A DNA stretch of 64,000 nt from Candidatus Magasanikbacteria bacterium GW2011_GWA2_56_11. GTDB taxonomy: Bacteria; Patescibacteriota; Patescibacteriia; Magasanikbacterales; UBA922. The stretch is from positions 1,459-65,458 of the forward strand of contig LCRX01000009.1 in assembly GCA_001004885.1 (NCBI GenBank). Direction: 5' to 3'. The translations under genes were made by a program, and so were the position numbers. Under the pieces are notes generated by a model. It ran no database searches and was not told the DNA's origin. It was given only the letters and a program-made list of their open reading frames with translations. This document shows, piece by piece, positions 2,121 through 56,793 of this stretch. Within the stretch, counting starts at the first letter, position 1. Each line of letters begins with the position of its first letter.

Positions 2121-2285
2121 TTTTGACGTTGAAATCACAGCGAGTTTCCCCCTTTTCGCCTCAGCATATACTTATTTTCTCGGCACCAAAACTCGCTCTT
2201 ATAGACTAGGACATTGGTGCCGAGAAAATAAGTCTATGTTTCGGCTCAACTTAGGATAGGATTGCTAATAACTTGCTATCAGTTC
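2121..2285 (+). repeat. family A structured repeat, copy A1 (most diverged)
   Basis: Shares the cacagcgagttt...aaaactcgctc and inner inverted repeats with the copies at 4899, 6805, 52712 and 56636. Confidence 0.6.
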
Positions 2286-2420
2286 GTTTTTAAACAATCT
2301 GCCATAGTACACCCACTATGTTGCGACATCTCAGCCAAGCCTTTTATTTCTTTTTTTTCTTCCGTCCCCTGGCCGCTGAGGTTGTTCGTGTGCGTATCTA
2401 ACAAACACACAAAACAAAGA

Positions 2421-2450
2421 AGAGCCTCAGCTATGGGGCTCTTTTATTTT
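2421..2450 (+). terminator. rho-independent terminator (agagcc / ggctct stem plus T-run)
   Basis: Stem-loop followed by ttttatttt. Confidence 0.4.
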
Positions 2451-2512
2451 CAGCGGGCAGCGAGAGGAAACAGGTGATTGTTTTTTCTCGGGGCTCGATG
2501 AAAGGAGAGAAC

Positions 2513-2695
2513 ATGAACACCACCGAGACCAGACTGGCCTTCAACATCTTCGACGACGCGTGGATGGAGCATATCACCCAGGAAAGGGTGGACGCCATGG
2601 TCCGGGCCTACGGCCGGGACGCCGCCAGGTACTACCTGGCGATCTACCGGAATTCGCCGGGTTGCATTGTTGACAAGAACACCGTTTGGCCATAA
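2513..2695 (+). CDS. hypothetical 60-aa protein (high-GC island)
   Basis: AAAGGAGAG Shine-Dalgarno 5 nt upstream of the ATG. Confidence 0.4.
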   Translation: MNTTETRLAFNIFDDAWMEHITQERVDAMVRAYGRDAARYYLAIYRNSPGCIVDKNTVWP

Positions 2696-2708
2696 ATGGA
2701 GGCCGGCA

Positions 2709-2840
2709 TGTGGGCGAACGCGACAGTCATCACGCAGCAGGATATTGATGAGCTTCTCCGGCGATACTCCAGGGAGGATGTTGTCAGGTGGCTCAAGGTC
2801 TGGGGCGACAGTGGCTGCATCATCGAGGGAGAGGCGTAAT
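2709..2840 (+). CDS. hypothetical 43-aa protein (not in the ORF track)
   Basis: GGAGG 5 nt upstream of the ATG; translates MWANATVITQQDIDELLRRYSREDVVRWLKVWGDSGCIIEGEA. Confidence 0.35.
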
Positions 2841-2856
2841 AGTATAGGAGGATAGC

Positions 2857-3144
2857 ATGGACTGGGCGACGAGGTGTGTCCAGGAAGGCCGCCTCCCGGC
2901 CGAACTCATCCGCGACGGACAGGAAGTCGAGTTCAAGCCTGGGTGGAGGATCAGGCCGACACCGGACCGGGACGGGCCATACCGACGGTACGTCATCGAG
3001 ACGGACGTGCTGGTGCCGGGAGTCGAGCCGGACTGGCCGTTCTCGCCCCGGCAGACTCCGGAGGTGCGCTGTACGGTCTACGTGCACTGCGCCCGCGCCG
3101 CTGCTTGGGCCGCTGCCGATGAGACGTCGGCTGCTCCGGCCTAG
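2857..3144 (+). CDS. hypothetical 95-aa protein (high-GC island)
   Basis: AGGAGG Shine-Dalgarno 6 nt upstream of the ATG; third of three tandem small genes. Confidence 0.45.
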   Translation: MDWATRCVQEGRLPAELIRDGQEVEFKPGWRIRPTPDRDGPYRRYVIETDVLVPGVEPDWPFSPRQTPEVRCTVYVHCARAAAWAAADETSAAPA

Positions 3145-3184
3145 ACTACGCGCTTCTACGGCACACTCCTCTCGATCGCCAACA

Positions 3185-3260
3185 ACCGCCCACGCCAACA
3201 CACTTGAGGTCGGAAACATTGTTTCCGGGCTGAAGGAGACAGGCGTGGGCGGTTTGTTTT
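3185..3260 (+). terminator. long-stem terminator (accgcccacgcc...ggcgtgggcggt plus ttgtttt)
   Basis: 12-bp perfect inverted repeat with a large loop followed by a T-rich tract. Confidence 0.4.
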
Positions 3261-3291
3261 GCGCCAGGTTAAGCTGATGCCGGTCAATTTG

Positions 3292-3321
3292 TTGACAGTG
3301 GATAACCAATTATTTTATACT
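3292..3321 (+). promoter_or_regulatory. sigma70-like promoter TTGACA-N18-TATACT
   Basis: Hexamers read directly; an AGTGGATAA (near DnaA-box) sits in the spacer. Confidence 0.4.
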
Positions 3322-3325
3322 TATG

Positions 3326-3494
3326 GCAGATCCGCTCGCGACAGCATATCTCATTCTACAACATCGTTATCATGGGAGGCCTACATTGCCTGCGGCCCGT
3401 GGGTCCAGGTTGCGGCCACCCACCTGGTACATACAGGGATGACGATAGTGCTGTCTTGGGCAGGATCCAAAAGGTCCCCGGCTGGGGATTTTTT
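3326..3494 (+). ncRNA. candidate small RNA or leader of about 170 nt between the promoter and an intrinsic terminator
   Basis: Promoter at 3292-3321; terminator ccccggctgggg plus attttttg at 3476-3494; no convincing ORF. Confidence 0.25.
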
Positions 3495-3542
3495 GTACCC
3501 GCCGTTGGGCGCGCCGGATAACCGGCATTGAAATTATTTGGT

Positions 3543-4718
3543 ATGCTCAAGTCATACATTGAAATACCGCCTTCGGCTACCCTGAGAATGAACACCCTGG
3601 CGCTCGCGAAAAAGCAGCGCGGAGAAAGAGTCTACAACTTGAGCGCGGGCGAACCGTTTTTGCCGACGGATTCGGGGGTAATTGAGGCGGCCTGTCGCGC
3701 TATGCGAGCCGGACAGACGCACTATCCGCCGGTTTTGGGCCTGCCGGAATTGCGCCGCGCGGCAGCCGAGTGGATGAACAGCACGTACGCGACCGCCTAT
3801 GCCCCGGACGAAGTAATAGCCACCTGCGGCGGCAAATTCGGTCTTTATGCTTTGTGCCGGGCATTGCTCGGGCCCGGAGACGAGGCGCTCATTATCGCGC
3901 CATACTGGGTGTCTTATCCCTCTCTGATTCAACTCGCGGGCGCGTCCGCGGTTACTGTGGCGACTGCTCCGGAGCGCGGTTGGAAGGCAAGCCGACAGGA
4001 TCTCGAACAGGCGATAACGCCGCGCACGCGGGTAATCATTTTCAATAATGCCGCCAATCCGACCGGCGTCGTGTACCATCGGGAGGAAATTGGCGCTTTG
4101 CTGGAGTGCGCGGCCGCGCACGATTTGGCCGTTGTTTCCGACGAAGTCTACAGCGGCCTGGTATACGACGGGCGCATTTTTGTCTCGGCCGGTTCTTTTC
4201 CTGAGCATCACGGCCGGGTATTCGTCGTGCAAAGCGTGTCCAAACATTTTGCCATGACAGGCTGGCGGGTGGGATTCGTGCTGGGCGATAAAGGAATTAT
4301 CGAATCCCTGGGAGTTTTGCAGAGCCAAAGCACCACCGGAACCGCCAGCATCAGCCAGTGGGCCGCCACCGCCGCCCTGGCCATGGCGCCGGCCATTATG
4401 TCCGAAGTTTCACAAAAAATGAGCGAGCGGCGGGATGCGCTGCACAGCGCGCTCCAAAGTACGTTCGGCGGCTTTGTGGCCAAACCGGCTTCAGGACTGT
4501 ACACATTGGCGGCGTTGGCCGATTTGGGGGTAAAAGATACCGCCTCGACAGCCTTTTGCGAACGCCTGCTTGAGCAGGCTAACATCGCTCTCGTACCCGG
4601 GGCGCCATTCGGCCAGGAAGGTTATGTGCGTTTTTCGTTTGGCGAAGACAGCGCGGAACTCTGCGCGGCCGTGCGGGCTTTGGGGGAGTACTTGAAAAAA
4701 ACGCGCCTTTTGGTATAA
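3543..4718 (+). CDS. class I/II pyridoxal-phosphate aminotransferase (aspartate aminotransferase-like)
   Basis: NLSAGEPFLPT, SVSKHFAMTGWRVGF (PLP-lysine region); start set at the first ATG, the ORF track begins at a TTG at 3528. Confidence 0.9.
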   Translation: MLKSYIEIPPSATLRMNTLALAKKQRGERVYNLSAGEPFLPTDSGVIEAACRAMRAGQTHYPPVLGLPELRRAAAEWMNSTYATAYAPDEVIATCGGKFGLYALCRALLGPGDEALIIAPYWVSYPSLIQLAGASAVTVATAPERGWKASRQDLEQAITPRTRVIIFNNAANPTGVVYHREEIGALLECAAAHDLAVVSDEVYSGLVYDGRIFVSAGSFPEHHGRVFVVQSVSKHFAMTGWRVGFVLGDKGIIESLGVLQSQSTTGTASISQWAATAALAMAPAIMSEVSQKMSERRDALHSALQSTFGGFVAKPASGLYTLAALADLGVKDTASTAFCERLLEQANIALVPGAPFGQEGYVRFSFGEDSAELCAAVRALGEYLKKTRLLV

Positions 4719-4744
4719 TACGGCGGCTGATACAATCAGCCGAT

Positions 4745-4818
4745 CGGGGTGTAGTTCAGTTGGCTAGAACGCATGCATGGGGTGCATGAGGTCGCACGTT
4801 CGAGTCGTGTCACCCCGA
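4745..4818 (+). tRNA. tRNA-Pro (anticodon GGG)
   Basis: Cloverleaf built by hand: acceptor CGGGGTG/CACCCCG, D stem GTTC/GAAC, anticodon loop ATGGGGT, T stem GCACG/CGTGT; CCA not encoded. Confidence 0.85.
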
Positions 4819-4898
4819 CAAAAGGAAACGCCAGTCTGCCAAGCGCAAAGACAAGGGGCCTAGCCCCTTTTTCTTTTTTTGTGTTAAAATAACTTTGG

Positions 4899-5041
4899 CT
4901 ATGAACTCACAGCGAGTTTCCCCCCTTTCGCCTCAAACAGAGACTGGTTTTCACGGCCCCAAAACTCGCTCTTACAGGCTCAAACATTGGTGCCGCGAAA
5001 ATCAGTCTCTGTTTCGGCTCGACTTAGAAAAGAGAATTGCC
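4899..5041 (+). repeat. family A repeat copy A2, 5' portion; its 3' tail resumes at 5206-5226 after the B1 insertion
   Basis: Aligns with the other A copies up to gaattgc; the tail taactcactgtcagttctatg follows B1. Confidence 0.65.
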
Positions 5042-5205
5042 AGAACCTACTCCCAAAAATAATTCCGAGGCAATTTTGTGCCTGTTTCGAGCGAAAATTG
5101 TCCGGGTTGAGCAGGCTAGTGGTACTATGGCGACGAAAGCCGGACAATTTGCAGCCGAAACAGGCCAAAATTGAGCCGGAAGTTATTTTTGGAAGTAGGT
5201 TCTAG
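5042..5205 (+). mobile_element. family B MITE-like element copy B1 (about 164 bp with terminal inverted repeats AGAACCTACTCCCAAAAATAA)
   Basis: Terminal inverted repeats and an internal long imperfect palindrome; inserted inside copy A2. Confidence 0.6.
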
Positions 5206-5223
5206 TAACTCACTGTCAGTTCT

Positions 5224-5802
5224 ATGGAAGCGCTCGATCCTTTGTATTGGCTTACGCTTTATCACGCCCCTGCCATTTTCGCGGGTGCTTTTCTTTTTGG
5301 CGAGACAATCATTTTGAGCGCGGCCTTTTTGTCGGCGCAGGGCTGGTGGCAACCGGGCACGGTTTTCTGGTTTTCTCTTCTCGGCACGGTAATCGCGGAT
5401 TGCGTCTGGTTTTTTTTCGGCCACCTGGCGACGCGTACCCGGCGCTGGGAAAAAAACCAGGAAAAATACGCGCGCGTCATCGAGTTTGTCGAGCGCAAAA
5501 CCGGGAATCGGCCATATCTGGCGCTGATACCGATTAAGTTCATGTACGGAACGCGGATACTCACCATTATTTATCTTTCGCTCCATCGCGTTAAGTTTTG
5601 GTCTTTTCTGGCGGCCGACCTGGCGGCCACCGCTCTTTTGCTGGCCGTTTTGATACCCCTGGGCTGGCTGGCCGGGCGGGGTTATACTAATTTGTTAACG
5701 ACCTACCACGGAGTAACCTACGCGTTAGGCGGCGTCCTGGTTTTGTTTGCGGCGTATAAAATAGTAACTGTATGGCTCAGCCGACGGATAATAAAAAAGT
5801 AA
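5224..5802 (+). CDS. DedA/VTT-domain family membrane protein
   Basis: 192 aa with multiple TM segments and DedA-like sequence; the ATG lies within the tail of the A2 repeat. Confidence 0.65.
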   Translation: MEALDPLYWLTLYHAPAIFAGAFLFGETIILSAAFLSAQGWWQPGTVFWFSLLGTVIADCVWFFFGHLATRTRRWEKNQEKYARVIEFVERKTGNRPYLALIPIKFMYGTRILTIIYLSLHRVKFWSFLAADLAATALLLAVLIPLGWLAGRGYTNLLTTYHGVTYALGGVLVLFAAYKIVTVWLSRRIIKK

Positions 5803-6770: not shown

Positions 6771-6804
6771 GCCAAAGAACCGCCGATATTTTTTTCTGTC
6801 CATT

Positions 6805-6966
6805 CTATGAACTCACAGCGAGTCTCCCCCCTTTCGCCTCAACATAGACTGATTTTCGCGGCCCCAAAACTCGCTCTTACAGGCTCAGACATTGGTGCCG
6901 TGAAAATCAGTCTATGTTTCGGCTCAACTTAGAAAATAGAATTGCTGATAACTCATTATCATTTCT
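6805..6966 (+). repeat. family A repeat copy A3
   Basis: Near-identical to A4 and A5; the tail ttctatg supplies the ATG of the downstream gene. Confidence 0.65.
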
Positions 6967-7410
6967 ATGTATATTCTGTCTTCAGCCTTTTCCAACGGCG
7001 GAGAAATCCCCGCCGAATATACTTGCGACGGCGCCGATACTCCGCCGCCGCTCTCTTGGGGCGGTATTCCGGAAACGGCCCAGAGCCTGGTCTTGATAGC
7101 CGACGACCCTGATGCCCCGTCCGGAACATGGGTACATTGGACAGTGTGGAATCTGGATCCCAAGGCTGCCGGTCTCGAAGGTAAAAAAATCCCCCCGGGG
7201 GCGGTAGAGGGAACAACAAGTTTTGGCCGTCCCGGTTACGGCGGTCCGTGTCCGCCCTCGGGAGTGCATCGTTACTTTTTCAAGTTACTGGCTCTCGATA
7301 CGCAGCTCGGCTTGCCGGCGGGAGCCGGTTATGCGGAATTGGATCGGGCCGTGCAGGGACATATCATAGCCAATGCCGCGCTTGTCGGCATCTATTCGAG
7401 GAAACAATGA
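6967..7410 (+). CDS. PEBP / YbhB-YbcL family protein
   Basis: ADDPDAPSG...HWTVWNL...GYGGPCPPSGVHRYFFKLLAL. Confidence 0.85.
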   Translation: MYILSSAFSNGGEIPAEYTCDGADTPPPLSWGGIPETAQSLVLIADDPDAPSGTWVHWTVWNLDPKAAGLEGKKIPPGAVEGTTSFGRPGYGGPCPPSGVHRYFFKLLALDTQLGLPAGAGYAELDRAVQGHIIANAALVGIYSRKQ

Positions 7411-7485
7411 AAAATTCAGGGCAGTATTAACCCTAAAAAAATTCTCCGGGCAGCTTGTCCCGGAGAATTTTTGTCCCTTGTTTGT

Positions 7486-7650
7486 TTACGCCGTTGGCTT
7501 TGCCAGCGTGCGGATGCAACGGGTGCAGAGCTTGTTGTCTCCCACCTTTTGCAGGTTTGGATACTGGCGGCGAATCGTTTTGATGTTCGAGTGGCTTCGG
7601 CTGGCGGATTTCTGTGAACCCTTGCCGCAGCGGTCGCAGGTGCGGGCCAT
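7486..7650 (-). CDS. rpmB: ribosomal protein bL28
   Basis: Hand translation of the minus strand gives MARTCDRCGKGSQKSASRSHSNIKTIRRQYPNLQKV...CTRCIRTLAKPTA (54 aa); absent from the ORF track because it is under 60 aa. Confidence 0.75.
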   Translation of the reverse strand: MARTCDRCGKGSQKSASRSHSNIKTIRRQYPNLQKVGDNKLCTRCIRTLAKPTA

Positions 7651-7870
7651 ACTAGTCTGAAATAAACAAGTCTAAATTTAAGGTGGAAACCGGGGCGGCC
7701 GGAGCGCGCGGGATTGTTTAAATTAACCGGTCGCGCTATACTGTCCAAAGTGAGCCTTATACTACACCCGGACAAAGAATTTGTCAATATTGTACCTGGC
7801 CGCCTGTCCGACGCGTGGCCGGCGGGGTAAAGTTGGCGGCCCATTATATCCAGATTTTTTGGTTTTCTCT

Positions 7871-8388
7871 ATGGAATTTACTTCTCTCCTTTTCTATTTT
7901 TTCATCATCATACCCTCGGCCATCTTTCATGAGTATGCCCACGGCTGGATGGCCGACCGGCTGGGTGATCCGACCGCGCGCTATGCCGGGCGCCTGACTC
8001 TTGACCCGCGGCCGCATATCGACAAAATCGGCACGCTGCTTTTGCCGCTGATGCTCTTCGTTTTTACCGGCGGGCGTTCTTTGTTTGCTTATTTACTTTT
8101 GGCGCCATTCTTCAGTTCGTGCCTTCCGGCAACCTGGCCGTATTTTTGTCCATTATTGTTTACGCCAATGTCCTTTTGGCGGTGTTCAATCTCGTACCGA
8201 TTCCACCCCTTGACGGATCAAAACTACTTTACGCGCTTTTGCCCGCGTCTTGGCACCAGTTGCGCGATGCGCTTGACCGGTTCGGTTTTGTATTTTTGCT
8301 CTTTTTTATTTTTTTCTTATCCCCGGTCATTATCCCCGTAATTCAGTTTGTATACCAGCTGTTCACCGCCGGAAAGGGGTTGTTCTAG
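7871..8388 (+). CDS. M50 (site-2 protease) family metalloprotease, apparently frameshifted near 8070-8090
   Basis: HEYAHG motif in frame 1 (7781 ORF); FGAILQFVP...NLVPIPPLDGSK in the next frame (8119 ORF, GTG-initiated in the track). Confidence 0.6.
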
Positions 8389-8427
8389 ATTTTAGGGCTC
8401 CCTCTCAAAGCTCTGCTGCCGACCGGC

Positions 8428-8456: not shown

Positions 8457-8461
8457 GAGCC

Positions 8462-9735: not shown

Positions 9736-9754
9736 TCAATGTCCTTTTACCCCT

Positions 9755-11830: not shown

Positions 11831-11845
11831 CCGCCCGCGAATTAA

Positions 11846-12008
11846 CTAGAACCCATCTCAAAAATAATTCCGGCTCAATTTTGGCCTGTTTCGGCTGCAA
11901 ATTGTCCGGTTCTCGTCGCCATAGTACCACTATGCCTCCTCAACCCGGACAATTTTCGCTCGAAGCAGGCCAAAATTGTCTCGGAATTATTTTTGAGATG
12001 GGTTCTAA
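11846..12008 (-). mobile_element. family B MITE-like element copy B2 (inverted orientation)
   Basis: Terminal inverted repeats TAGAACCCATCTCAAAAATAA / TTATTTTTGAGATGGGTTCTAA; internal palindrome. Confidence 0.6.
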
Positions 12009-14990: not shown

Positions 14991-15642
14991 GTCCAAGCCT
15001 AAAGAAATTCCCTACAACTGAAGATTTTCCCAAGTCTTAACCGACCGCTCCGGCTGGGCCGGGGCCGGGTAAAGAAACTAGGAAGAGAGAAGAGCAACCC
15101 GATTAGTAGGTTTCTCTTTTTTCTTTTGGGGGAGTGCGATCTTTACAATTTATAACAAGCAAACAACGGTAAAACCGGCACCAAATGGTGCTGGAGGTTC
15201 ACATTATAAACGTGACAAGAACCAATTCCAACGCAAGTTGGAGATCGTCTATTCTAGTATAGGAATCAACCTCCTCTGGAGCTAGTCTCCAGGGAGTTTC
15301 TCATTGTCCTTCGGGACTTTATTGAGAGTTTGATCCTGGCTCAGGACGAACGTTGGCGGCGTGTTTAAGGCATGCAAGTCGAGGGATCGGCCGTAGCAAT
15401 ACGGTACGGACCGGCAGACGGGAGAGGAACACATTGGCAACCTACCTTCGAGACGGGGATAGCCCCGGGAAACCGGGATTAATACCCGATGGTCATGGGG
15501 GGACATAAGTCATTCCCATGTAAATCATTTCTGGCTCGAAGAGGGGCCTATGCCCTATCAGCTAGTTGGTGAGGTAATAGCTCACCAAGGCTACGACGGG
15601 TAGGGGACGTGAGAGCGTGACCCCCCTCACTGGGACTGAGAA

Positions 15643-15673
<31 letters not shown>

Positions 15674-15807
15674 AAGAATCTTCCGCAATGGACGAAAGTC
15701 TGACGGAGCGACGCCGCGTGCAGGATGAAGCCCCTCGGGGTGTAAACTGCTTTTATAGGGGACGAATTTGTGACGGTACCCTATGAATAAGAGGTTGCTA
15801 ACTCTGT

Positions 15808-16673
15808 AAGCCCAAACCGGGCCTGGTGCAGAGTGATTGTGGTAACACAGTCAAAGAAAATCTCGCTATATGCTGGAAACTTCTGTTAATGGCACACTAC
15901 CTAAAAACGGTGACAATGTGTGTCAAACCCAAAAAAACGTACTACCGCACGTATAGGGGTTGCAGAACAATCAGCAGGAAACCGCAAACTACAACCGGTT
16001 TGCGGGCTCCTCAGAGACTACACGCGAGACTCCCGAGTTAGTCGGGATGATGATATAGTCCAACGAGCTCTTCATATGAAGGCAGAAGTGAAAGAAATAG
16101 TAACCGCCTCGCTTTTAGGTGATGGTTGGTTGACGGAATTGAAGCCGAGAACAGGAACCGCTATGTACTATGTGAAATATCATGGTCGTAGCCGGGATTA
16201 TCTGCAATGGCTTCACGGACAAGTTCGCGAACTTGGTCCTTCTGAACTGAAGGAAGTCGCGCGCTATGGTCAATATTATTTCTACACGAAAGCCCGAACA
16301 GACATCGGCGAACTAAGAAAACTTTTTTACCCAAACGAGGGAAGAAAAGTGATTCCGCGAAATATCCGCGAACTGCTATCTACGCCCAAAGCCTTGGCCA
16401 TTTGGTACCAAGACGATGGAACATTAGATAAACGGTCGCGTGATCATTGGAATGCAATGTTCGCTACGTATTGTTTTGGTTATGAAGAGTGCGAGCTGCT
16501 TGCGAAAACACTGAAAGATAACTTCGACCTGGCTGTATCGGTTTGCCGATGCCAGATGCGGGGTAAAATGTATTATCGGCTTTATGTGCGATCCCAAAGT
16601 ATGAATAACTTCATACGACTCGTACAGCCGCATATACACCCATCATTCAGTTACAAAATTTCGCTTAACAATG
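15808..16673 (+). mobile_element. group I intron in the 16S rRNA (866 nt) carrying a homing endonuclease ORF
   Basis: Exon 1 ends ...CTAACTCTGT (terminal U); the intron ends ...AATG (terminal G); exon 2 resumes GCCAGCAGCAGCGGTAATAC. Confidence 0.7.
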
Positions 16674-16690
16674 GCCAGCAGCAGCGGTAA
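16076..16690 (+). CDS. LAGLIDADG homing endonuclease (two-motif, intron-encoded)
   Basis: LLGDGWL and WYQDDGT LAGLIDADG motifs; the ORF reads through the 3' splice site into exon 2. Confidence 0.8.
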   Translation: MKAEVKEIVTASLLGDGWLTELKPRTGTAMYYVKYHGRSRDYLQWLHGQVRELGPSELKEVARYGQYYFYTKARTDIGELRKLFYPNEGRKVIPRNIRELLSTPKALAIWYQDDGTLDKRSRDHWNAMFATYCFGYEECELLAKTLKDNFDLAVSVCRCQMRGKMYYRLYVRSQSMNNFIRLVQPHIHPSFSYKISLNNGQQQR

Positions 16691-17636
16691 TACAGAGACC
16701 TCAAACGTTGTCCGGATTCATTGGGCGTAAAGCGTCCGCAGGTGGCATGGAAAGTCAGGGGTCAAAGCTTCCGACTTAATCGGAAATCTGCTTCTGATAC
16801 TTCCAAGCTAGAGGTTGTGAGAGGCACACGGAACTGCCGGTGTAGTAGTAAAATGCGTTGATATCGGCAGGAACACCAAAGGCGAAGGCAGTGTGCTGGA
16901 ACAATCCTGACACTCAGGGACGAAAGCGTGGGGAGCGAATGGGATTAGATACCCCAGTAGTCCACGCCCTAAACTATGTGTACTAGGTATATGGAGTATC
17001 GACCCTCCATGTGCCGTTTAAAAAAGCTAACGCGTTAAGTACACCGCCTGGGGAGTACGGCCGCAAGGTTAAAACTCAAAGGAATAGACGGGGACCCGCA
17101 CAAGCGGAGGATCATGCGGCCCTTAAGTGGGGTAACGAGCGCAACCCTCGTTGTGTGTTACATTGGACACACGAGACTGCTCGCGCAAGCGAGAGGAAGG
17201 TGGGGACGACGTCAAATCAGCATGGCTCTTACGTCCCGGGCGACACGCATGATACAATGGCCAGTACAAAGGGTTGCCAAGCCGCGAGGTGGAGCTAATC
17301 CCATAAAGCTGGTCTCAGTTCGGATTGCAGGCTGCAACTCGCCTGCATGAAGCTGGATTCGCTAGTAAACGCGCATCAGCCACGGCGCGTTGAATACGTT
17401 CTCGGGTCTTGTACTCACCGCCCGTCACACCACGAAAGTTGGCAATGCCCGAAGGCTCTCGTTCGAGGGACGAAGGCAGGGTCAATGATCAGGGTGAAGT
17501 CGTAACAAGGCATCCGTAGCGGAAGCTGTGGATGGATCACCTCCTTTCTGGAGTTACTCTCGGGAAACCGAGTGAAACTACTAACGAGTACAAAAAGAGT
17601 AGATGATCGGTTTCTTGTCACGTTTATCGTGTGAAT

Positions 17637-17700: not shown

Positions 17701-17728
17701 CCCCACGTAAAATTAACACCTTATACTT

Positions 17729-18247
17729 ATGACCAAGCGTTTCGACCGCCTGTTGTCCCTGGCCCAGAAAACCGGCAATCCGCTTATTGTCCACGATCGA
17801 TCCGAAAAGCGTGACATGGTGGTCTTGAGTGTCGACGAATACGAGATGATGCTCGACACGCAGGAGTTTGCCGGCGAGGAGCCGCTCCGGGATGTCCGGG
17901 AGTTGTCCGAGGGCGAGATGCTCGATAAGATAAACCGCGATATCGCTATCTGGCGTTCGGCGCAGGAACTAGACGGGGCAGAAGACAGGGGCGAGATGCT
18001 CGCGGAGGAATGGCGCCAGAGTGCGGTCGAAGCGACAGCCAATCGCGGCCGGCATCAGGCAGGCGAGGTGATCAGGAAAACTTATCCGGCAGAGAGTCCG
18101 GACGCCGCTATCCGCTATGAGCCTGCCGGCGAGGAATCGTTGACCGGCCCCCAGCCCATTCCCGAGGCGGCCGCCGAATCGGCGGCTATCGGAGGCGGGG
18201 AGCCGCTCGAAGGCGACCCGATATTCTTTGAGGAACCGGTGGAATAG
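17729..18247 (+). CDS. hypothetical acidic protein; the N-terminus weakly resembles Phd/YefM antitoxins
   Basis: 172 aa; LIVHDRSEKRDMVVLSVDEYEMM pattern; very acidic C-terminal half; no partner toxin nearby. Confidence 0.55.
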   Translation: MTKRFDRLLSLAQKTGNPLIVHDRSEKRDMVVLSVDEYEMMLDTQEFAGEEPLRDVRELSEGEMLDKINRDIAIWRSAQELDGAEDRGEMLAEEWRQSAVEATANRGRHQAGEVIRKTYPAESPDAAIRYEPAGEESLTGPQPIPEAAAESAAIGGGEPLEGDPIFFEEPVE

Positions 18248-31103: not shown

Positions 31104-31112
31104 GTTTAGACC

Positions 31113-31277
31113 AGAACCTACTCCCAAAAATAACTTCCGGCTCAATTTTGGCCTGTTTCGGCTGCAAATTGTCCGTCTTTCGTCGTCATAATACCATTAT
31201 GCCTCCTCAACCCGGACAATTTTCGCTCGAAACAGGCACAAAATTGCCTCGGAATTATTTTTGGGAGTAGGTTCTAG
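31113..31277 (-). mobile_element. family B MITE-like element copy B3 (inner core in the B2 orientation)
   Basis: Terminal inverted repeats AGAACCTACTCCCAAAAATAA / TTATTTTTGGGAGTAGGTTCT; 165 bp. Confidence 0.6.
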
Positions 31278-32840: not shown

Positions 32841-32870
32841 AAAAAGAGGCCGTTACCGGGTCTCTTTTTT
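32841..32870. terminator. bidirectional terminator between adk and the convergent regulator gene
   Basis: aaaaagaggccgttaccgggtctctttttt. Confidence 0.45.
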
Positions 32871-33656
32871 CATTTCCGGATGTTTCCGTACGAATACATC
32901 TAGCGGCTCGGCGCTTTGCCAGGCGAGGGAGAAAAGGGTCCGCAACGTATCGGCCAAAACTTGGCTTTGGATGAGGGTGGTGAAGAGCTTGCCCGCGAAT
33001 GATACCATCATGATTTTATCTTCGAAGATGGCGTTATCGGTGCCAACGAACTGCTGCGAGAATTCCGGCGGCACGACGCGAACCTCGTGACGCGGATTGA
33101 CGGCGAGTATTTTTTGGCCGTAGGCGATATCCACCGGATCGGGATTTACAAATTCTTTGGCCTGGCGCTGATAGTTGGTCTCTCCGGTGGCATCGGCAAT
33201 CCACAGGTCGAGCAGGTCCGGGAGCGCCTCATAGATTTTTCGTATAGAGGAGAAAAACAGAATTTCGGTTTTGCTCTTCCAGACGGTTTCGAGGTACACC
33301 TGCTTCATTCCCTCTATCCCCTCGTACACCCGCACTTGCGGCTTGCCCTTTTCGACATTGTACATAGCCCTAAGAAAGGGGAGCGCCTGTTTTACCGAAT
33401 GCTGCCGCTCCTGCACGACGCGGGCGAGCTTGTCCGGATCTTCGGCTATGTAAGTGGAGCCGCGCTCGGTCGGCTTTTCCGACAGCAACCCGCGGCGGAT
33501 TAGGTCTTCGATAATGACGTAAGCGGTCGGGCGTTTGATTCCGGCTTTTTGGGCGATATTTTGCACTGAGTCGGTTCCGAGCTCGAGCGCGGCCAGGTAG
33601 ATTTTCGCTTCTTTTTCGGAGAGGCCGAAATCGAGCAGGCTTTTTTCGAGAAACAT
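32853..33656 (-). CDS. TrmB-family helix-turn-helix transcriptional regulator
   Basis: N-terminal wHTH LSEKEAKIYLAALELGTDSVQNIAQKAGIKRPTAYVIIEDLIRRGLL. Confidence 0.65.
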   Translation of the reverse strand: MFLEKSLLDFGLSEKEAKIYLAALELGTDSVQNIAQKAGIKRPTAYVIIEDLIRRGLLSEKPTERGSTYIAEDPDKLARVVQERQHSVKQALPFLRAMYNVEKGKPQVRVYEGIEGMKQVYLETVWKSKTEILFFSSIRKIYEALPDLLDLWIADATGETNYQRQAKEFVNPDPVDIAYGQKILAVNPRHEVRVVPPEFSQQFVGTDNAIFEDKIMMVSFAGKLFTTLIQSQVLADTLRTLFSLAWQSAEPLDVFVRKHPEMKKETR

Positions 33657-33667: not shown

Positions 33668-33718
33668 AGAACCTACTCCCAAAATTGAGCCGGAAGTTAT
33701 TTTGGGAGTAGGTTCTAG
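33668..33718. mobile_element. family B element B4: 51-bp internally deleted derivative with TIRs only
   Basis: AGAACCTACTCCCAAAA...TTTTGGGAGTAGGTTCT with the centre missing. Confidence 0.55.
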
Positions 33719-33742
33719 CTAGAGCTAGTATACCTCTTTTTT

Positions 33743-33800
33743 ATTATGTTGTCAATAGTTTTGACAACATAATACTAATTTAGCTATATATAGCTAAATT
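33743..33800. promoter_or_regulatory. two adjacent perfect palindromes (13-bp arms ATTATGTTGTCAA/TTGACAACATAAT, and a 24-bp AATTTAGCTATATATAGCTAAATT); candidate operator site
   Basis: Perfect dyad symmetry in an AT-rich stretch 90-145 bp from the TrmB-like gene start; a TTGACA hexamer is embedded. Confidence 0.3.
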
Positions 33801-34892: not shown

Positions 34893-35067
34893 ATTCTCAT
34901 TAGAACCCACCCGCCAAATAATGCCCAGGCAATTCCGCGCCTGTTTTCTCTCCTAAATTTTCCGCATTGAGGAAGATTGGCTGTTCTATAGCGACAAAAG
35001 CCGGACAATGTTAGGAACCGCAAGAGGCCAAAGTTGAGCCGGAAGTTATTTGGTGAACAGAGGTTGC
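34893..35067. mobile_element. family B element copy B5 (degenerate)
   Basis: AGAACCCACCCGCCAAATAA...ccggaagttatttggtgaacagaggttgc; recognisable core ccggacaat/gcctgttt. Confidence 0.4.
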
Positions 35068-39916: not shown

Positions 39917-40699
39917 ATGCTCGCCATAGTTCTTTCCCGCCGAGACTTTCGCGAGTTCGACCAAATAGTGTCTGTGTACACGTATGAGGCCGGCAAGAGG
40001 GAACTGCTCGCGCGCGGGATTAAAAAAATTACCAGCAAGCACGCGGCCCACTTGGAGCCGTTTTCTGTGGTTGATGTTTCCGTGGTGCCGGGCAAAGAAA
40101 TTGACCACCTGACCACGGTGCAGCCGGTGGAATATTTTCCGGCCATCCGCGGCGATTTTAAAAAAAGTTTTCTGGCTATGGCTATGGTCATGATCACTGA
40201 CCGGCTGGTCGGGACGCACGTGCCTGATAAAGGACTTTTTCGAGCGCTCAAAACCTGGCTCGAGGCTGTGTCCCAGGCGCCGGCGGCAGCGGGGGCGCTC
40301 GCGGACGCTTATGTCATGGTTATTCTGGAGCGCCTGGGTTTGGCTCCGGTTTTGGAGGGCTGCGTTTGCTGCGGCAAAACTTTTTCTGGTATTGGCCGCG
40401 AGGCCCTTAAGCCGGGCGAAGATACTGCCCCGGGAATATATTTCGGGGGCGGCGGACTGGCCTGCCCCGATTGCCGCCGTCTCAAGCTGGCGGCGGGCGA
40501 ACAAGTGATGGCGGCCGGCCTTAAGGAGATTAGCCTTTTGGGCCTTCTTCTTAAGGGTGACTGGCGGCTGATAAACAATTATGAGTTTGGCTCTGGGGAG
40601 GCCGAACGCCTGCACGATTTGGTTTATGCCTTTGCGCTCTACCATAGCGAGCGGAAGCTGGGGGACTGGGGGAATTTACCCCTGGAGCCAAAGTTTTAG
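39917..40699 (+). CDS. recO: DNA repair protein RecO
   Basis: N-terminal OB region (AIVLSRRDFREFDQIVSVYT) plus the C4 zinc finger CVCCG...CPDC. Confidence 0.8.
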   Translation: MLAIVLSRRDFREFDQIVSVYTYEAGKRELLARGIKKITSKHAAHLEPFSVVDVSVVPGKEIDHLTTVQPVEYFPAIRGDFKKSFLAMAMVMITDRLVGTHVPDKGLFRALKTWLEAVSQAPAAAGALADAYVMVILERLGLAPVLEGCVCCGKTFSGIGREALKPGEDTAPGIYFGGGGLACPDCRRLKLAAGEQVMAAGLKEISLLGLLLKGDWRLINNYEFGSGEAERLHDLVYAFALYHSERKLGDWGNLPLEPKF

Positions 40700-40860
40700 A
40701 GCCTGCTGCCAAAAATAATTCGGAGTCAGTTTCGGGCCGATTTTGAGCGAAAGATGTCTGGGTTGAGGAGGTATAATGGCGTTATGACGACTAAACCACG
40801 AACTTTTTGCAGCTAAAATCGGTCGAAAATGAGCCAGAATTATTTTGGGATTAGGCTCTA
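40698..40860. mobile_element. family B element copy B6 (diverged)
   Basis: TAGAGCCTGCTGCCAAAAATAATT...AATTATTTTGGGATTAGGCTCTAA. Confidence 0.45.
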
Positions 40861-41033
40861 ACAATTCAGGCGGAGATTCGTATCCGAGTCTTGTCAGTCG
40901 GGTTTTTACGTGATAGAGTGTGGGTGGTTTGTCTGCTTCGGCCGACGAATCCGGTCTTGCGCTTCGCCGCTTGTTTTAGCCCGGCGTGGTTATGCCGGGG
41001 CCGGCTGGAATTAATTTGTTTTTCTCTTTGTGT

Positions 41034-49216: not shown

Positions 49217-49228
49217 ACATATGACCGT

Positions 49229-50605: not shown

Positions 50606-50609
50606 ATAT

Positions 50610-51590: not shown

Positions 51591-51604
51591 CGCTTTTTTA
51601 GCTT

Positions 51605-52699
51605 ATGTCTGCCACCCCTACTATACTGGTAAAAAAAGCCGATGGCAGCACCGTCCGGATGACGCTCGCTGAGGCCAAAAAGCTCAGCCAGCCAAAAAAT
51701 CCACCCTCGTCTCTGCCGGCGGCTGCAGCGCCCTCCGCGTCGGAGGACGCCGGACCGGACCGGCTTTTGCCTTTGGCCACACCGGCAGCGGCCAGCCAGC
51801 CGGCGCCTAGCCGGGATAAGCCTCTTTTGGAGCACGAGATCCAAGATCACGAGGTGCCCCATCGGGATATTACCGGCGCGCCCGACTACGAGGCCGCGGT
51901 CGCGCGAATTGTGGCTGTGTCCGGAGCGGTCGTGCCTGCCGAGTTGCGGACCAGAGCGCGGTCGCTTATCGTGTCGGCCCTCAAGGGTATTCGCGATCAG
52001 GAACAATTCCAGGCGTACGCGCGGCAGGCGCCAAATGACGGCGGTTTGGGCTGGACCCCGGAGACTATCCGGGCTGTCTGGTCGCGTATCGAAGGCGAGC
52101 GGGCCAACGCGTCCCGGCTTCCGCTGCCGGCCGTAACCCAGAGTCTCTCTACCACTACCCCGGTGAAAGCTATTTTTCTTGACGAAGCGCGGGCCCAGGC
52201 CTCGGCAGCGTCTTTTTCCCGGCCGCCGCAGCCGGCGGGAGAGAATCCTCGGCCGGAGTTTGTCCGGCCGGCGCCGGCAGGTGGCCTGCCCATTCCGCCC
52301 CCGGCGGCCAGGCCGGGCATGGCCCTGTCCCGTCCGGTACTCCATGACGTGGCGCCGGCCAGAGAAGCCAGGAATTCTCCGGTGACCGGGCCGATAGAGG
52401 AGATACAGACTTTCTCGCTCAAGGACTGGCGCCGTTTGGGAGCCACGCCACGCGCGGCGCGCGAGGCTCTTTTTGCCAAATTTAGCGGCTGGAAAGAAGA
52501 ATCATTGCTCCTGTTTTTGGACATACGCTCGGCCTGGCGCGAGAGTCCGCTGGTGCGCGAGTACCGGTCTCTCGCGGCCGAGGCGGTGAACTCCGGCCGG
52601 ACGATGCGGGAGGCGGCCGGCTCTCAGCCGGCCAAAGACAGGCTGACTGACGCGGATATTATGGAGATCGTTGAACTCAATAGCAGTTTAAGGGTATAA
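51605..52699 (+). CDS. hypothetical Pro/Ala-rich protein
   Basis: 364 aa ORF in the same operon-like array. Confidence 0.55.
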   Translation: MSATPTILVKKADGSTVRMTLAEAKKLSQPKNPPSSLPAAAAPSASEDAGPDRLLPLATPAAASQPAPSRDKPLLEHEIQDHEVPHRDITGAPDYEAAVARIVAVSGAVVPAELRTRARSLIVSALKGIRDQEQFQAYARQAPNDGGLGWTPETIRAVWSRIEGERANASRLPLPAVTQSLSTTTPVKAIFLDEARAQASAASFSRPPQPAGENPRPEFVRPAPAGGLPIPPPAARPGMALSRPVLHDVAPAREARNSPVTGPIEEIQTFSLKDWRRLGATPRAAREALFAKFSGWKEESLLLFLDIRSAWRESPLVREYRSLAAEAVNSGRTMREAAGSQPAKDRLTDADIMEIVELNSSLRV

Positions 52700-52711
52700 T
52701 ACCGGAGGCGG

Positions 52712-52868
52712 AGAACTCACAGCGAGTCCCCATTTTCGCCTCAAACATAGACTGATTTTCGCGGCCCCAAAACTCGCTCTTACAGGCTCAGACATTGGTG
52801 CCGCGAAAATCAGTCTATGTTTCGGCTCGACTTAGAAAATAGAATTGCTGATAACTCACTGTCAGTTC
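52712..52868 (+). repeat. family A repeat copy A4
   Basis: Near-identical to A3 and A5. Confidence 0.65.
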
Positions 52869-52901
52869 ACTATTTAAAGATTTTATTTCCCAAAAAGTTT
52901 A

Positions 52902-53336
52902 ATGCAGCAGTTCGTAGTGCCGCAATTTATCGAAGTGGAGGACAAAATTTTCGGGCCGATCACGACCCGGCAATTTTTAATATTACTCGTGGGCGGGATA
53001 CTGGTTTTTTTGGCCTACCGGTACGCCGATCTGGCGCTGTTTATTTTTACCTTGGCTTTCATCGGCGGGGCCTCGCTGGTTCTGGCGTTCGTGAAGGTGA
53101 ACGGCCAGACATTCCATTACTTTATGCTCAATATCGCGCAGACTTTGCGCAAGCCGTCCCTGCGCGTGTGGCATAAAAGCTTTACCAAGGAGCAGCTCCA
53201 ACACTGGCGCCAAAGCGATCTGGCGCCGGAATCCGCGTCCGCGGCCGCCGCTGTGCCGGTCCGGCGGGAGAGAATCCGCGATCTGGCGCTCCTCGTGAAC
53301 ACCGGGGGATTTTACCGTCCCGACGACAGCGTTTAA
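52902..53336 (+). CDS. PrgI-like (VirB3-analogue) small membrane protein
   Basis: FIEVEDKIFGPITTRQFLILLVGGILVFLAY resembles the PrgI-family signature; two TM segments. Confidence 0.6.
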   Translation: MQQFVVPQFIEVEDKIFGPITTRQFLILLVGGILVFLAYRYADLALFIFTLAFIGGASLVLAFVKVNGQTFHYFMLNIAQTLRKPSLRVWHKSFTKEQLQHWRQSDLAPESASAAAAVPVRRERIRDLALLVNTGGFYRPDDSV

Positions 53337-53355
53337 CGGGACACGAATAAACCTT

Positions 53356-54048
53356 ATGCCGGACGACAAACTCAAAAAAAAGCCAAAACCCAAGCACCCC
53401 GCTACTCAGGCGCACCTGCCGGTGGCCGAAATCAAGGACGGCGTGGTGGTGCTCCGGGACGGCACCATGCGCGCGGTGCTGTTGGTGTCGAGCATCAATT
53501 TTTCTCTCAAGTCCGAAGACGAACAAAACGCGATCATTTCCTCTTATGTCGGCTTTCTGAATTCTCTCGATTTTCCGATTCAAATCGTCGTGCAGTCCCG
53601 CCGCTTGCAGATACGCCCCTACCTGGACCGGCTGATAAAAATGGAAAGGGAACAGGTGAACGAGCTTTTGCGGATCCAGACCGCGGATTATCGTTCGTTT
53701 GTCGAAGAGCTGGTGCAGATCGGGCAGATAATGACCAAGCGGTATTACGTTATCGTGCCTTATGATCCCCTGAGCAACAAGCGCAAAAGTTTTTGGTCCC
53801 GGTTCAAGGAAGTGGTCAAACCGGCGCTTAGCGTGCGGCTGAAAGAAGAAAGGTTCAAACAGCGCCAAGAAGATATCGCCTTGCGCGTGCGCCATATCGT
53901 GAGCGGTCTGTCGAGCATCGGGCTTTCGGCGGTTGAGCTCGACACGCAGGCATTGATAGAATTGTTTTATTCCACCTATAATCCGGATACCGCGTTCGCG
54001 GAGACGCTCAGCAACGTGGAAGATATCCGCCTGGAACAGGCCGCCTAA
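53356..54048 (+). CDS. VirB4-family conjugative ATPase, N-terminal segment, separated from the rest by a stop plus a frame change
   Basis: DGVVVLRDGTMRAVLLVSSINFSLKSEDEQNAIISSYVGFLNSL typical of Gram-positive-type VirB4 N-termini. Confidence 0.6.
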   Translation: MPDDKLKKKPKPKHPATQAHLPVAEIKDGVVVLRDGTMRAVLLVSSINFSLKSEDEQNAIISSYVGFLNSLDFPIQIVVQSRRLQIRPYLDRLIKMEREQVNELLRIQTADYRSFVEELVQIGQIMTKRYYVIVPYDPLSNKRKSFWSRFKEVVKPALSVRLKEERFKQRQEDIALRVRHIVSGLSSIGLSAVELDTQALIELFYSTYNPDTAFAETLSNVEDIRLEQAA

Positions 54049-54052
54049 TTTT

Positions 54053-55918
54053 ATGCCCTTCAAGCCCATAGCTACCAAATCCGGCTCCGGCCTGTCTCCG
54101 GGCAAAAACGCCGACGAGAAAATAAAACTCCAGGAGGAACTTATCACCCTGGAGGAGGAGAGGCTGTACCGCGAAGGCACGGTCGCCATCCGCGATTTGA
54201 TCGCTCCCGCCGCGTTCCGCGTCGAGTCAAGTTTCATCCAGCTCGGGACCACTTATCTCCGGACGCTGTTTGTGGTTACTTATCCGCGTTACATTTCGGT
54301 GGGGTGGAGCGCGCCGATTCTAAACCTCAACTTGACGATGGATATCAGCATGTTTTTTTACCCGGTGAATTCGGCTATTATCCTAAAACAGCTCAAGAAA
54401 AAAGTCGGCGCCCTGGAGGCCCAGCTGTCGGCCGACGCGGAAAAGGGCGCGGCCCGCGATCCGTTGCGGGAGACGGCGTTGCGCGACATCGAGCAGCTGC
54501 GCGACGACCTGACCCAGGGAGTGGAACATTTTTTTCAGTTCGCGTTTTACGTTACCATCTACAGCCAGGATCAAAAAGACCTGGACAAGCTGACCGAAGA
54601 TATTGAGAATATTTTTGGCTCCCGGCTTATTTACAGCAAGAACGTCTTGTACCAGGCGGAGCAAGGTTTCACTTCCACCCTGCCTCTTTGCGTGGACGAG
54701 CTGGCGATTTGTTTCAACATGAACTCATCGCCCATCGCCGCCTCGTTCCCCTTCATCTCTTCCGAGCTGACGAGCGACGACGGGATACTGTACGGCATTA
54801 ATCGGCACAACAATAGCCTGGTTCTGTTTGACCGGTTTTCCCTGCAGAACGCCAATATGGTCGTTTTCGCCACCTCCGGCGCCGGCAAGTCTTACGCGGT
54901 CAAGCTGGAAGTGCTGCGCAGCCTGATGATGGGCACAGAGGTAATCATCATTGACCCCGAGATGGAGTACCTGCATCTTACCGAGGCCGTCGGGGGTACT
55001 TACATAAATATTTCTCTCTCTTCGGACAGCAAGGTAAACCCCTTCGATTTGCCCCGCCCGGTCGGCCAGCAGATCTCCACCGAGGACATCATCCGCAGCG
55101 CGGTGATTACGGCCAAAGGACTGCTGCGGATAATGTTCGGGACGATAACCGCGCAGGAGGACTCTATCTTGGATCGGGCGCTCCTCGAAACCTACGCCAA
55201 AAAGGACATTACGCCGGCGGCGGACTTGACCGCGGTCGAGCCGCCCATAATGCAGGATCTTTTGGATATCCTCGAAGGCATGCAAGGGGCGGAGCAGCTG
55301 GTTTTGAAACTGCGCAAATATACCGAAGGGACGTTCTCCGGCCTGTTCAATTCCCCGACCAATGTTAACGTGGTCAACCAGCTGGTGGTATTCAGCGTGC
55401 GCGACCTCGAGGACGAGCTCCGGCCGATGGCTATCTATTCCCTGGTTAACTATATCTGGAACATCGTCCGGTCCGAGCAGAAGAAGCGGATACTTATCAT
55501 TGACGAAGCCTGGTGGCTCATGGCGCACGAGGACAGCGCCAAATTCATTTACGCGCTGGTCAAACGCTGCCGCAAGTATTATCTCGGCGTGTCGACGATT
55601 ACCCAGGACGTAAACGACTTTTTGCGCTCGCCCTACGGGCAGGCGATCGTAACGAACTCCGCGCTCCAGCTCCTTTTGCGCCAGTCGCCGGCGGCGGTCG
55701 ACACGGTGCAGCGCGTTTTTATGCTGACCGAAGGAGAAAAGTATCTGCTTTTGGAAAGCGGCGTGGGCGAGGGCATATTTTTTGCCGGCAACAAACACGC
55801 GGCCATAAAGGTAGTCGCCTCCTACACCGAGGACCAGCTTATAACCTCCGACCCCAAGCAGCTTTTGGAAATTGAAAAGGCCAAACGGGAATTCGGGGGA
55901 CAGGCCGACCGATCCTGA
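54053..55918 (+). CDS. VirB4/TrbE/CagE-family T4SS ATPase, core and C-terminal part
   Basis: Walker A ATSGAGKSY, Walker B ILIIDEAWWL, and the YLRTLFVVTYPRY segment. Confidence 0.85.
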   Translation: MPFKPIATKSGSGLSPGKNADEKIKLQEELITLEEERLYREGTVAIRDLIAPAAFRVESSFIQLGTTYLRTLFVVTYPRYISVGWSAPILNLNLTMDISMFFYPVNSAIILKQLKKKVGALEAQLSADAEKGAARDPLRETALRDIEQLRDDLTQGVEHFFQFAFYVTIYSQDQKDLDKLTEDIENIFGSRLIYSKNVLYQAEQGFTSTLPLCVDELAICFNMNSSPIAASFPFISSELTSDDGILYGINRHNNSLVLFDRFSLQNANMVVFATSGAGKSYAVKLEVLRSLMMGTEVIIIDPEMEYLHLTEAVGGTYINISLSSDSKVNPFDLPRPVGQQISTEDIIRSAVITAKGLLRIMFGTITAQEDSILDRALLETYAKKDITPAADLTAVEPPIMQDLLDILEGMQGAEQLVLKLRKYTEGTFSGLFNSPTNVNVVNQLVVFSVRDLEDELRPMAIYSLVNYIWNIVRSEQKKRILIIDEAWWLMAHEDSAKFIYALVKRCRKYYLGVSTITQDVNDFLRSPYGQAIVTNSALQLLLRQSPAAVDTVQRVFMLTEGEKYLLLESGVGEGIFFAGNKHAAIKVVASYTEDQLITSDPKQLLEIEKAKREFGGQADRS

Positions 55919-55978
55919 GGGCAGCGGCGCCGGCTAAACCGGCGGCTTGAATCAGTTATCACCTAAATCTTTCTTGCT

Positions 55979-56581
55979 ATGCTGACTTTGCGCCAAAGAA
56001 TTTTTGCCGCCGCCAGTATCGTGGTGGCCTTGTTACTGGCGGTTATCTTGTATATGATTTATTTCCGGCGTCCGTCGGCGCCCGCTAATGACCGGAGGCC
56101 ATCGGGTTCTCCGTCGGCCGCGCTGCCCCAGCCGTCGGCCGCTGCCACGCAGAGGTACAGTGGGACGCAGCCTTTGCCTTCCGGCGGGTCCCGATCCGGG
56201 GTAATTTCCGAAGACGTTTATTTGCGCCAGTTGGCGAAAATTTTTGTGGAGCGCTTCTGGAGTTTTTCCAACCAAAACGGCAATCGGCACATTGCCGATA
56301 GCTTGGAGCTGGCCACGCCGAGCATGCAGGCTTGGATGAAAAGCCGCGCGGACGACGGCGCCGGCCTGTACGAGGGGGTAACGACAGAAATTCTGCGGGC
56401 TGAGGTCGTTTCCAAAGAAGGGGACAAAGCGGTCGTCGAGATCGGCGCCCAGCAAGAAATCAGTCAAAGAACTTCTACCACGACACCGACCGAAACCACT
56501 GTCGAAACCCGAACCGGACGGGTGGAATTGGAGCGGGTGGACGGCGAGTGGAAAGTAGATGCCTTGTACTGGGATAAATAA
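55979..56581 (+). CDS. N-terminally membrane-anchored protein, possibly a VirB8-like T4SS component
   Basis: A single N-terminal TM helix followed by a soluble domain of about 130 aa; the assignment is based on position and topology only. Confidence 0.45.
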   Translation: MLTLRQRIFAAASIVVALLLAVILYMIYFRRPSAPANDRRPSGSPSAALPQPSAAATQRYSGTQPLPSGGSRSGVISEDVYLRQLAKIFVERFWSFSNQNGNRHIADSLELATPSMQAWMKSRADDGAGLYEGVTTEILRAEVVSKEGDKAVVEIGAQQEISQRTSTTTPTETTVETRTGRVELERVDGEWKVDALYWDK

Positions 56582-56635
56582 CGGCCCCGGTCCGGTTTTC
56601 GCCGCCTAGTACCGCCGACTCTTGGCCGCGTAGTT

Positions 56636-56793
56636 GAGCTCACAGCGAGTTTCCCCCTTTTCGCCTCAAACATAGACTGGTTTTCGCGGCCCCAAAACTC
56701 GCTCTTACAGGCTCAGACATTGGTGCCGCGAAAATCAGTCTATGTTGCGGCTCGACTTAGAAAATAGAATCGCTAATAACTCACTATCAGTTC
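56636..56793 (+). repeat. family A repeat copy A5
   Basis: Near-identical to A3 and A4. Confidence 0.65.

Follow-up and report, generated by a model that had tools for sequence, protein, structure and literature searches.

Within a 64,000-nucleotide stretch of the genome of the groundwater organism Candidatus Magasanikbacteria bacterium GW2011_GWA2_56_11 (contig LCRX01000009.1, positions 1,459 to 65,458 of the forward strand; hereafter 'the window'), five copies of a structured repeat of approximately 157 base pairs, here termed Family A, are found on the plus strand. With a probability of roughly 80%, the repeat is explained as a transposable element of the miniature inverted-repeat class (MITE): a non-coding element that derives from an insertion sequence of the cut-and-paste (DDE) type and displays promoter-proximal insertion in a single orientation. 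The family has defined termini and flanking target duplications, lacks coding capacity, carries an internal loop that has been inverted in some copies, is interrupted in one copy by a second element (Family B), and lies in a uniform orientation and at a narrow spacing relative to -10 boxes in the host DNA.

Termini, duplications and internal structure of Family A

An invariant core sequence of the family (CCAAAACTCGCTCTTACAGGCTC) is matched five times in the window, always on the plus strand and with 0.00 matches expected by chance, and an nhmmer search of the whole window with a Family A profile returned exactly the same five copies (Table 1), bearing out the number and strand proposed in an initial reading made from the letters alone (below, the sequence-only reading). 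The boundaries of each copy were set by the element termini and the flanking duplications; the first copy is the most divergent, at approximately 85% identity to the others. The core is also matched in 12 metagenome loci that have only the repeats in common with the window, and whose flanking proteins are annotated as Candidatus Magasanikbacteria (NCBI accessions KKW41598-KKW42554), which places these loci elsewhere in the same genome bin or population. After de-duplication, and together with one 5' junction from contig L030, they add 10 further distinct insertion sites from that population to the five in the window, bringing the tally to 15 distinct 5' junctions, with 13 of the copies complete. 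No match was found in 185,579 species-representative genomes, against which two invariant segments were each scanned, or in a single scan of viral contigs, and the family is confined to one lineage.

Alignment of all copies, which range from 154 to 162 bp in length, demonstrated that the element begins with G(AACTCAC) and ends with (CAGTT)C, and that its two ends (5' GAACTCACAGCGAG ... CTCACTATCAGTTC 3') constitute 14-bp imperfect terminal inverted repeats (GAACTSAYAGYGAG), a length at the short end of the usual MITE range. Of those 14 positions, 11 to 12 agree between the 5' terminus and the 3' ends, and in the consensus fold the two termini pair as the outer helix. Exactly at these boundaries, a perfect 3-bp direct repeat is found around 10 of the 13 complete copies (P=2.4e-16); direct repeats of 2, 4 and 5 bp are found at 0, 1 and 0 copies, respectively. 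The duplicated triplets vary between sites (TAT four times, GTT twice, and CAC, ATT, ATG, AAT and ACT once each). The element has no coding capacity, as every reading frame is broken by insertions, deletions or stop codons, and the frames differ between copies. Its size (within the range of approximately 50-800 bp), dispersed copies, terminal repeats, duplications and lack of coding capacity are together those of a MITE. The sequence-only reading, which set the repeat apart from a random repetitive extragenic palindrome (REP), overlooked the terminal inverted repeats and duplications that identify it as transposon-derived.

Between its termini, Family A contains a central hairpin of approximately 27 bp with a loop of 24-32 nucleotides, and a -10-like TAGAAT sequence is located in its 3' tail, 23 nucleotides from the 3' end. 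Its two internal inverted repeats, at first described as nested, are in fact interleaved in the order A..B..A'..B', the long B hairpin enclosing A' in its loop. In two independent metagenome copies (L006 8982-9137 and L008 2632-2788, with duplicates in L009 and L010) that loop is reverse-complemented and its flanks are unchanged, the mark of a small inversion of DNA between the arms of the hairpin. Among the loop variants, that of window copy 1 most resembles these inverted loops.

Family B, of which further copies are found both in the window and in the metagenome loci (Table 1), is a MITE of approximately 160 bp with GAACC...GGTTC termini, terminal inverted repeats of about 21 bp, and a TA duplication in a YTAR target; both families start with GAAC and end with GTTC. 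Copy 2 of Family A, which had been described as ending at 5041 plus a tail, is a complete element split by Family B: its tail resumes beyond the insertion at 5203-5222, as indicated by a weak profile match (5196-5222) and a gapped alignment. At the insertion point the Family A consensus reads GAATTGC-TA-GTAAC (a CTAG site), and it is restored when Family B is removed, so that the consensus itself serves as the empty site of the Family B insertion. This nesting of one MITE in another demonstrates past movement of elements of the kind in this genome. An inverted repeat with perfect 14-bp arms (TATTATGTTGTCAA-N5-TTGACAACATAATA, at 33742-33774) adjoins the short Family B derivative in an intergenic region, next to a gene for a TrmB-family regulator (32853-33656, minus strand), and may be an operator.

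Table 1. Family A and Family B elements and associated host promoter sequences (window coordinates unless a metagenome locus is named)
Feature	Position	Strand	Remarks
Family A copy 1	2131-2285	+	flanks GTT (2128-2130) / GTT (2286-2288)
Extended -10 box TGTTAAAAT, host promoter	4882-4890	+	hexamer ending 12 nt upstream of copy 2
Family A copy 2	4903-5222	+	flanks TAT (4900-4902) / TAT (5223-5225); complete, Family B inside
Family B element in copy 2	5043-5202	+	160 bp, in CTAG site; flanks CA (5041-5042) / TA (5203-5204)
Family A copy 3	6809-6965	+	flanks TAT (6806-6808) / TAT (6966-6968)
Host promoter TTGAAC-18-TATAAT	52671-52700	+	sigma-70-type, 10/12 matches; -10 ends 12 nt upstream of copy 4
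Family A copy 4	52713-52868	+	unequal flanks GGA / ACT; PrgI-family gene (52902) downstream
Family A copy 5	56636-56793	+	flanks GTT (56633-56635) / GTT (56794-56796); ComF-like gene (56801) downstream
Family B, further copy	~11845-12006
Family B, further copy	~31110-31275
Family B, further copy	~40698-40868
Family B, further copy	~34902-35051		divergent
Family B, short deletion derivative	~33680-33718
Family B, metagenome locus L010	6635-6805
Family B, metagenome locus L012	1745-1908

Two metagenome contigs join the 5' flank of one Family A copy to the 3' flank of another: the copy 3 flank is joined to the L002 flank in L025 (2439-2700), and an enolase flank is joined to the copy 4 flank in L030 (1385-1700), which contributes the one new 5' junction counted above. 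Such structures could have arisen by genuine recombination of the copies or as chimeras of assembly through the repeat. A single insertion is also represented in two samples, being complete to the contig end in L007 (1816-1939) and having its 3' third replaced by unrelated sequence in L011 (2943-3044), a difference that points to a deletion, a rearrangement or a further insertion.

Spacing and orientation relative to host promoters and start codons

A -10 hexamer (defined as TAnnnT with at least five of six matches to TATAAT) ends 10-13 nucleotides upstream of Family A at 11 of the 15 sites, and at exactly 12 nucleotides in eight of them; among the first 14 copies, no such hexamer was found at spacings of 14-44 nucleotides. 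The background rate of the same hexamer is 0.7% across all positions (P=4e-19), and 2.7% across sense-strand positions 0-45 nucleotides upstream of gene starts (P=8e-15, or P=3e-14 for the spacing of exactly 12 nucleotides). Six of the first 10 hexamers carry a TGn extension, often as TGnTATAAT. On the mirror side of the element a -10-like hexamer is present in only one of 14 copies, and a symmetric (palindromic) target motif was rejected on that basis. The DNA around the hexamers, including the 9-nucleotide spacer, is not homologous between sites, demonstrating that the promoters belong to the host sites rather than to Family A. The earlier suggestion of a portable 5' leader is retained, and that of a promoter cassette is not, the -10 box lying outside the element. 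At copy 2, the box is located downstream of a tRNA-Pro gene (4745-4819) and its terminator, and at copy 4 it overlaps the stop codon of the upstream gene; copies 1 and 5 have no -10 box at the usual distance. The flanks of Family B display no regular -10 spacing.

Random orientation and position of further copies relative to genes, which the sequence-only reading had named as its refutation, was not observed: at all 15 distinct sites with readable neighbours the element directs its 3' end towards the start of a co-oriented gene just downstream, including three copies in divergent intergenic regions, and none is found between convergent genes or facing the other way. Approximately 80% of the window's genes lie on the plus strand, so that the shared strand of the window copies is weak evidence by itself; what matters is how each copy is directed with respect to the gene that it precedes. 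The genes that follow the repeats have unrelated functions (DedA, PEBP, PrgI, ComF, S-layer protein and epimerase); those named in the sequence-only reading do follow the repeats, except that the DedA gene follows copy 2 and not copy 1, downstream of which only small unannotated open reading frames (ORFs) are found.

Four insertions (copies 2 and 3, L004 and L008) fall on a start codon, with the triplet (TAT followed by G, or ATG) overlapping the ATG. The 3' TAT of copy 2 overlaps the ATG (5224) of a DedA/VTT gene (5224-5802), and that of copy 3 overlaps the ATG (6967) of the PEBP gene; the start codon in the motif 'ttcTATG', previously attributed to the tail of the repeat, is thus that of the host, overlapped by the TAT duplication. 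With the element removed, the -10 box at these sites lies 9-10 nucleotides from the ATG, a leaderless or nearly leaderless layout. Since the first base of Family A is G, such insertions also regenerate an ATG at the 5' boundary of the element, from which short reading frames of 15-53 codons open; these are not conserved, and a coding role for them was rejected. Many gene starts in the window (for example at 60178-60200, 17722-17732 and 4885-4902) have a -10-like hexamer within about 10 nucleotides and no obvious Shine-Dalgarno sequence, which suggests that leaderless or near-leaderless mRNAs are common in this organism.

Proposed mechanism and competing explanations

The pattern described above is best read as a process in which a transposase supplied in trans would move Family A, placing it 9 bp plus the 3-bp duplication downstream of a -10 hexamer, with the target triplet 10-12 nucleotides past the hexamer, at positions of approximately +4 to +6 counted from where transcription is expected to start. 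With its 5' end facing the promoter, the whole element would be transcribed as the 5' leader of the gene, and at genes of leaderless type the insertion would fall exactly on the start codon. Expression of the downstream genes would be maintained by read-through, by the internal TAGAAT sequence or by re-initiation, and the 27-bp hairpin may act as a substrate for RNase III, as in the Correia elements considered below. The spacing would reflect a choice of target in which the -10 element, or a protein bound to the promoter, is read, and not selection alone. More specifically, (TGn)TAnnnT might be read by a domain of the transposase, or by sigma factor or RNA polymerase of the host bound at the promoter, and a cut with a 3-bp stagger be directed to a point 9 bp downstream, always in the same orientation; this last proposal is tentative, its chances being judged somewhat short of even.

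Several observations weigh against the MITE assignment or its targeting component. First, three of the 13 complete copies, including window copy 4, lack a matching duplication, which is probably explained by recombination between copies. Second, no longer element with Family A termini was found in the window or in about 170 kb of related loci, where a search with the termini returned only MITE ends and a few chance matches, and no transposase domain was found among the annotated genes of the same sequences. Third, no empty site of Family A was found in look-ups of the exact PEBP, DedA, PrgI, 200-aa and NDK proteins: every assembly of the population carries the same insertions, and beyond the PEBP protein of GW2011_GWA2_56_11, to which that of the window is 100% identical, PEBP homologues are at most 63% identical, so that the databases hold no near relative for the comparison. 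Fourth, the pairing of the central hairpin is kept through four double substitutions. Fifth, a recognisable -10 box at the right distance is missing from four of the 15 sites, among them those of three window copies out of five, and all copies come from a single population, a small and phylogenetically narrow sample; these last two points count in particular against targeted insertion.

The strongest competing explanation, which we consider rather unlikely, agrees that Family A is a MITE and attributes its position to selection: the element would insert more or less at random, and only sense insertions between a promoter and its gene would survive or be useful, for example if it depends on transcription by the host or supplies a leader of some use. 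A compact genome with short intergenic regions offers few tolerated sites, four of the 15 sites have no -10 box, and the TAGAAT sequence at the 3' end could rescue downstream expression; Correia elements likewise accumulate upstream of genes (PMC10969869). Selection should, however, allow varied positions, whereas eight of 15 insertions share one exact spacing and none of the first 14 copies falls in the adjoining range of 14-44 nucleotides. It should also leave copies in the most neutral sites, between convergent genes or past terminators away from promoters, where none was found, and Family B resides in the same genome without such spacing. What speaks for targeting over selection is the narrowness of the spacing, the lack of copies where an insertion would seem neutral, and the different behaviour of Family B.

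A different explanation, which takes up the cis-regulatory RNA or portable 5' untranslated region of the sequence-only reading, makes the repeat a structured RNA of that kind or a family of small RNA genes, whose fold acts on the downstream gene and which has spread by duplication. The location directly 5' of genes in the sense orientation, the promoter immediately upstream, and a very stable predicted fold (z = -5 to -8) with compensatory double changes at four hairpin pairs are all in keeping with that proposal, and the four changes could reflect a function at the RNA level. Several results speak against it. Both strands fold about equally well; the covariation term of the consensus structure is a negligible -0.39 kcal/mol; and mismatches of G.U and A.C type are balanced (approximately 18 versus 14), leaving no strand-specific signature. 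In the consensus fold the partner of segment A is the 3' terminus and not A', and an A-A' pseudoknot was rejected as a conserved RNA feature, since the loop that contains A' is inverted in two copies. No Rfam 15 family matched Family A at gathering thresholds, and a permissive scan returned only hairpin look-alikes, at no more than 25 bits against cut-offs of 60-102. When the unrelated downstream genes, the absence of the repeat from the species-representative genomes, and the 3-bp duplications and terminal inverted repeats at its boundaries are added, an RNA of this kind becomes improbable: the palindrome is maintained, but it bears no mark of a dedicated regulatory RNA.

Movement by a single-strand (HUH) transposase (as a cluster of REPs or bacterial interspersed mosaic elements mobilised by a RAYT, or as an IS200/IS605-derived palindromic element), or as a non-autonomous, RNA-guided element of the IS110/IS1111 type, is highly improbable: the long internal hairpin, and a loop sequence (AAACTCGCT) complementary to positions 9-17 of the 5' terminus that recalls the donor-binding loops of bridge or seek RNAs, are set against flanking triplets that vary from copy to copy, a unit of 157 bp, the two inverted loops, and targets that share only a -10 hexamer 9 nucleotides away. 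Systems of the HUH and IS110 types make no variable 3-bp duplications; the core of an IS110-type element is constant, IS200/IS605 elements insert beside a fixed tetranucleotide without duplication, and REPs are 20-40 bp in length. Identity with IS110/IS1111, which would call for one core dinucleotide constant at both junctions and a sequence-specific target common to the copies, was rejected because the triplets differ between copies, and identity with REP or mosaic elements, which have a conserved 5' tetranucleotide and make no duplication, because the unit carries terminal repeats and duplications and is not a 20-40-bp palindrome.

Related elements, genomic surroundings and significance

Among described MITEs, the closest parallels are found in the Correia elements (CREE or NEMIS) of Neisseria, which are mostly located just upstream of genes, are co-transcribed with them to produce long mRNA hairpins that are cleaved by RNase III, can carry promoter-like hexamers and can undergo inversion (PMC10969869). 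Location upstream of genes, promoters, RNase III cleavage, nesting and inversion have all been described for known MITEs (PMC10969869). Family A likewise is a non-coding MITE in the range of approximately 100-160 bp with terminal inverted repeats. Correia elements differ in duplicating TA, in their 26-bp repeats, in their binding site for integration host factor (IHF) and in inserting in either orientation, whereas Family A has a variable 3-bp duplication, unrelated 14-bp termini, a large internal hairpin, a host in the Candidate Phyla Radiation (CPR), a single orientation and a fixed distance from the host -10 box. Identity with the Correia family was rejected on the basis of the duplication and the termini. 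Pneumococcal BOX, RUP and SPRITE repeats and similar MITEs are reported to insert into one another (PMC3049150). Family A resembles those repeats, as well as ERIC, MITEAba12 and BrickBuilt, in being small, dispersed, intergenic and non-autonomous, and in the nesting displayed by copy 2; it has no sequence similarity to any of them, and none has been reported to have a fixed spacing to -10 boxes.

In its logic alone, and not in membership, the insertion pattern also resembles that of two systems whose enzymes and element types are entirely different. Tn7 (through TnsD at attTn7) and the yeast element Ty3 both integrate in one orientation only, a set distance away from a landmark that a protein recognises, namely the end of glmS and the Pol III transcription start, respectively. 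For Family A, in contrast, the landmark would be a sigma-70-type -10 element, which offers hundreds of sites per genome. A lead to the parental insertion sequence is offered by the ISL2, IS1031 and IS427 groups of the IS5 family, whose termini start with GA or GG and whose duplications are short (2-4 bp); the TA duplication of Family B in a YTAR site is typical of that family. Such an assignment is tentative, and the duplications of Family A are not TNA. No description was found in the literature searched of MITEs in CPR bacteria or of a bacterial transposon with a fixed spacing to -10 boxes. Family A is a new MITE family, with an insertion geometry that is unusual and apparently undescribed.

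The window holds several other features in the surroundings of these elements. Copies 4 and 5 precede, respectively, the first gene and the ComF-like gene of a type IV secretion or competence-like cluster (52902-57562) that encodes PrgI-family, TraC-like, P-loop TraG/VirB4-like ATPase and ComF-like proteins, and that is followed on the opposite strand by a RadC gene (57894-58640). The 16S rRNA gene (15318-17547) is interrupted by a group I intron (15798-16084) that carries a LAGLIDADG_2 homing endonuclease ORF (15920-16690, E=1.4e-32), and is reported by Rfam as two matches. At 8091/8092, the window lacks approximately 100 bp of the coding sequence of an M50 peptidase that several further assemblies of this strain contain; one assembly has a run of N at the position, so that the apparent polymorphism is probably a mis-closed scaffold gap and not an element.

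CPR genomes are approximately 1 Mb in size and are generally regarded as containing little mobile DNA, and to our knowledge MITEs are almost undescribed in these bacteria; here, a single genome region harbors two MITE families, one of them nested in the other. If insertion is directed to promoters, the element would always arrive within the few bases of a gene that are transcribed first, which would explain how a promoterless element comes to be transcribed in a minimal CPR genome. Such targeting would also be a way of selecting insertion sites that is new among bacterial transposons, and a natural system for the genome-wide rewiring of 5' leaders, and might provide a tool for promoter-proximal insertion. 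If selection is responsible instead, Family A would represent a clean case of MITEs that have been retained as 5' leaders. The insertion sites further offer a ready map of likely promoters in an uncultivated organism.

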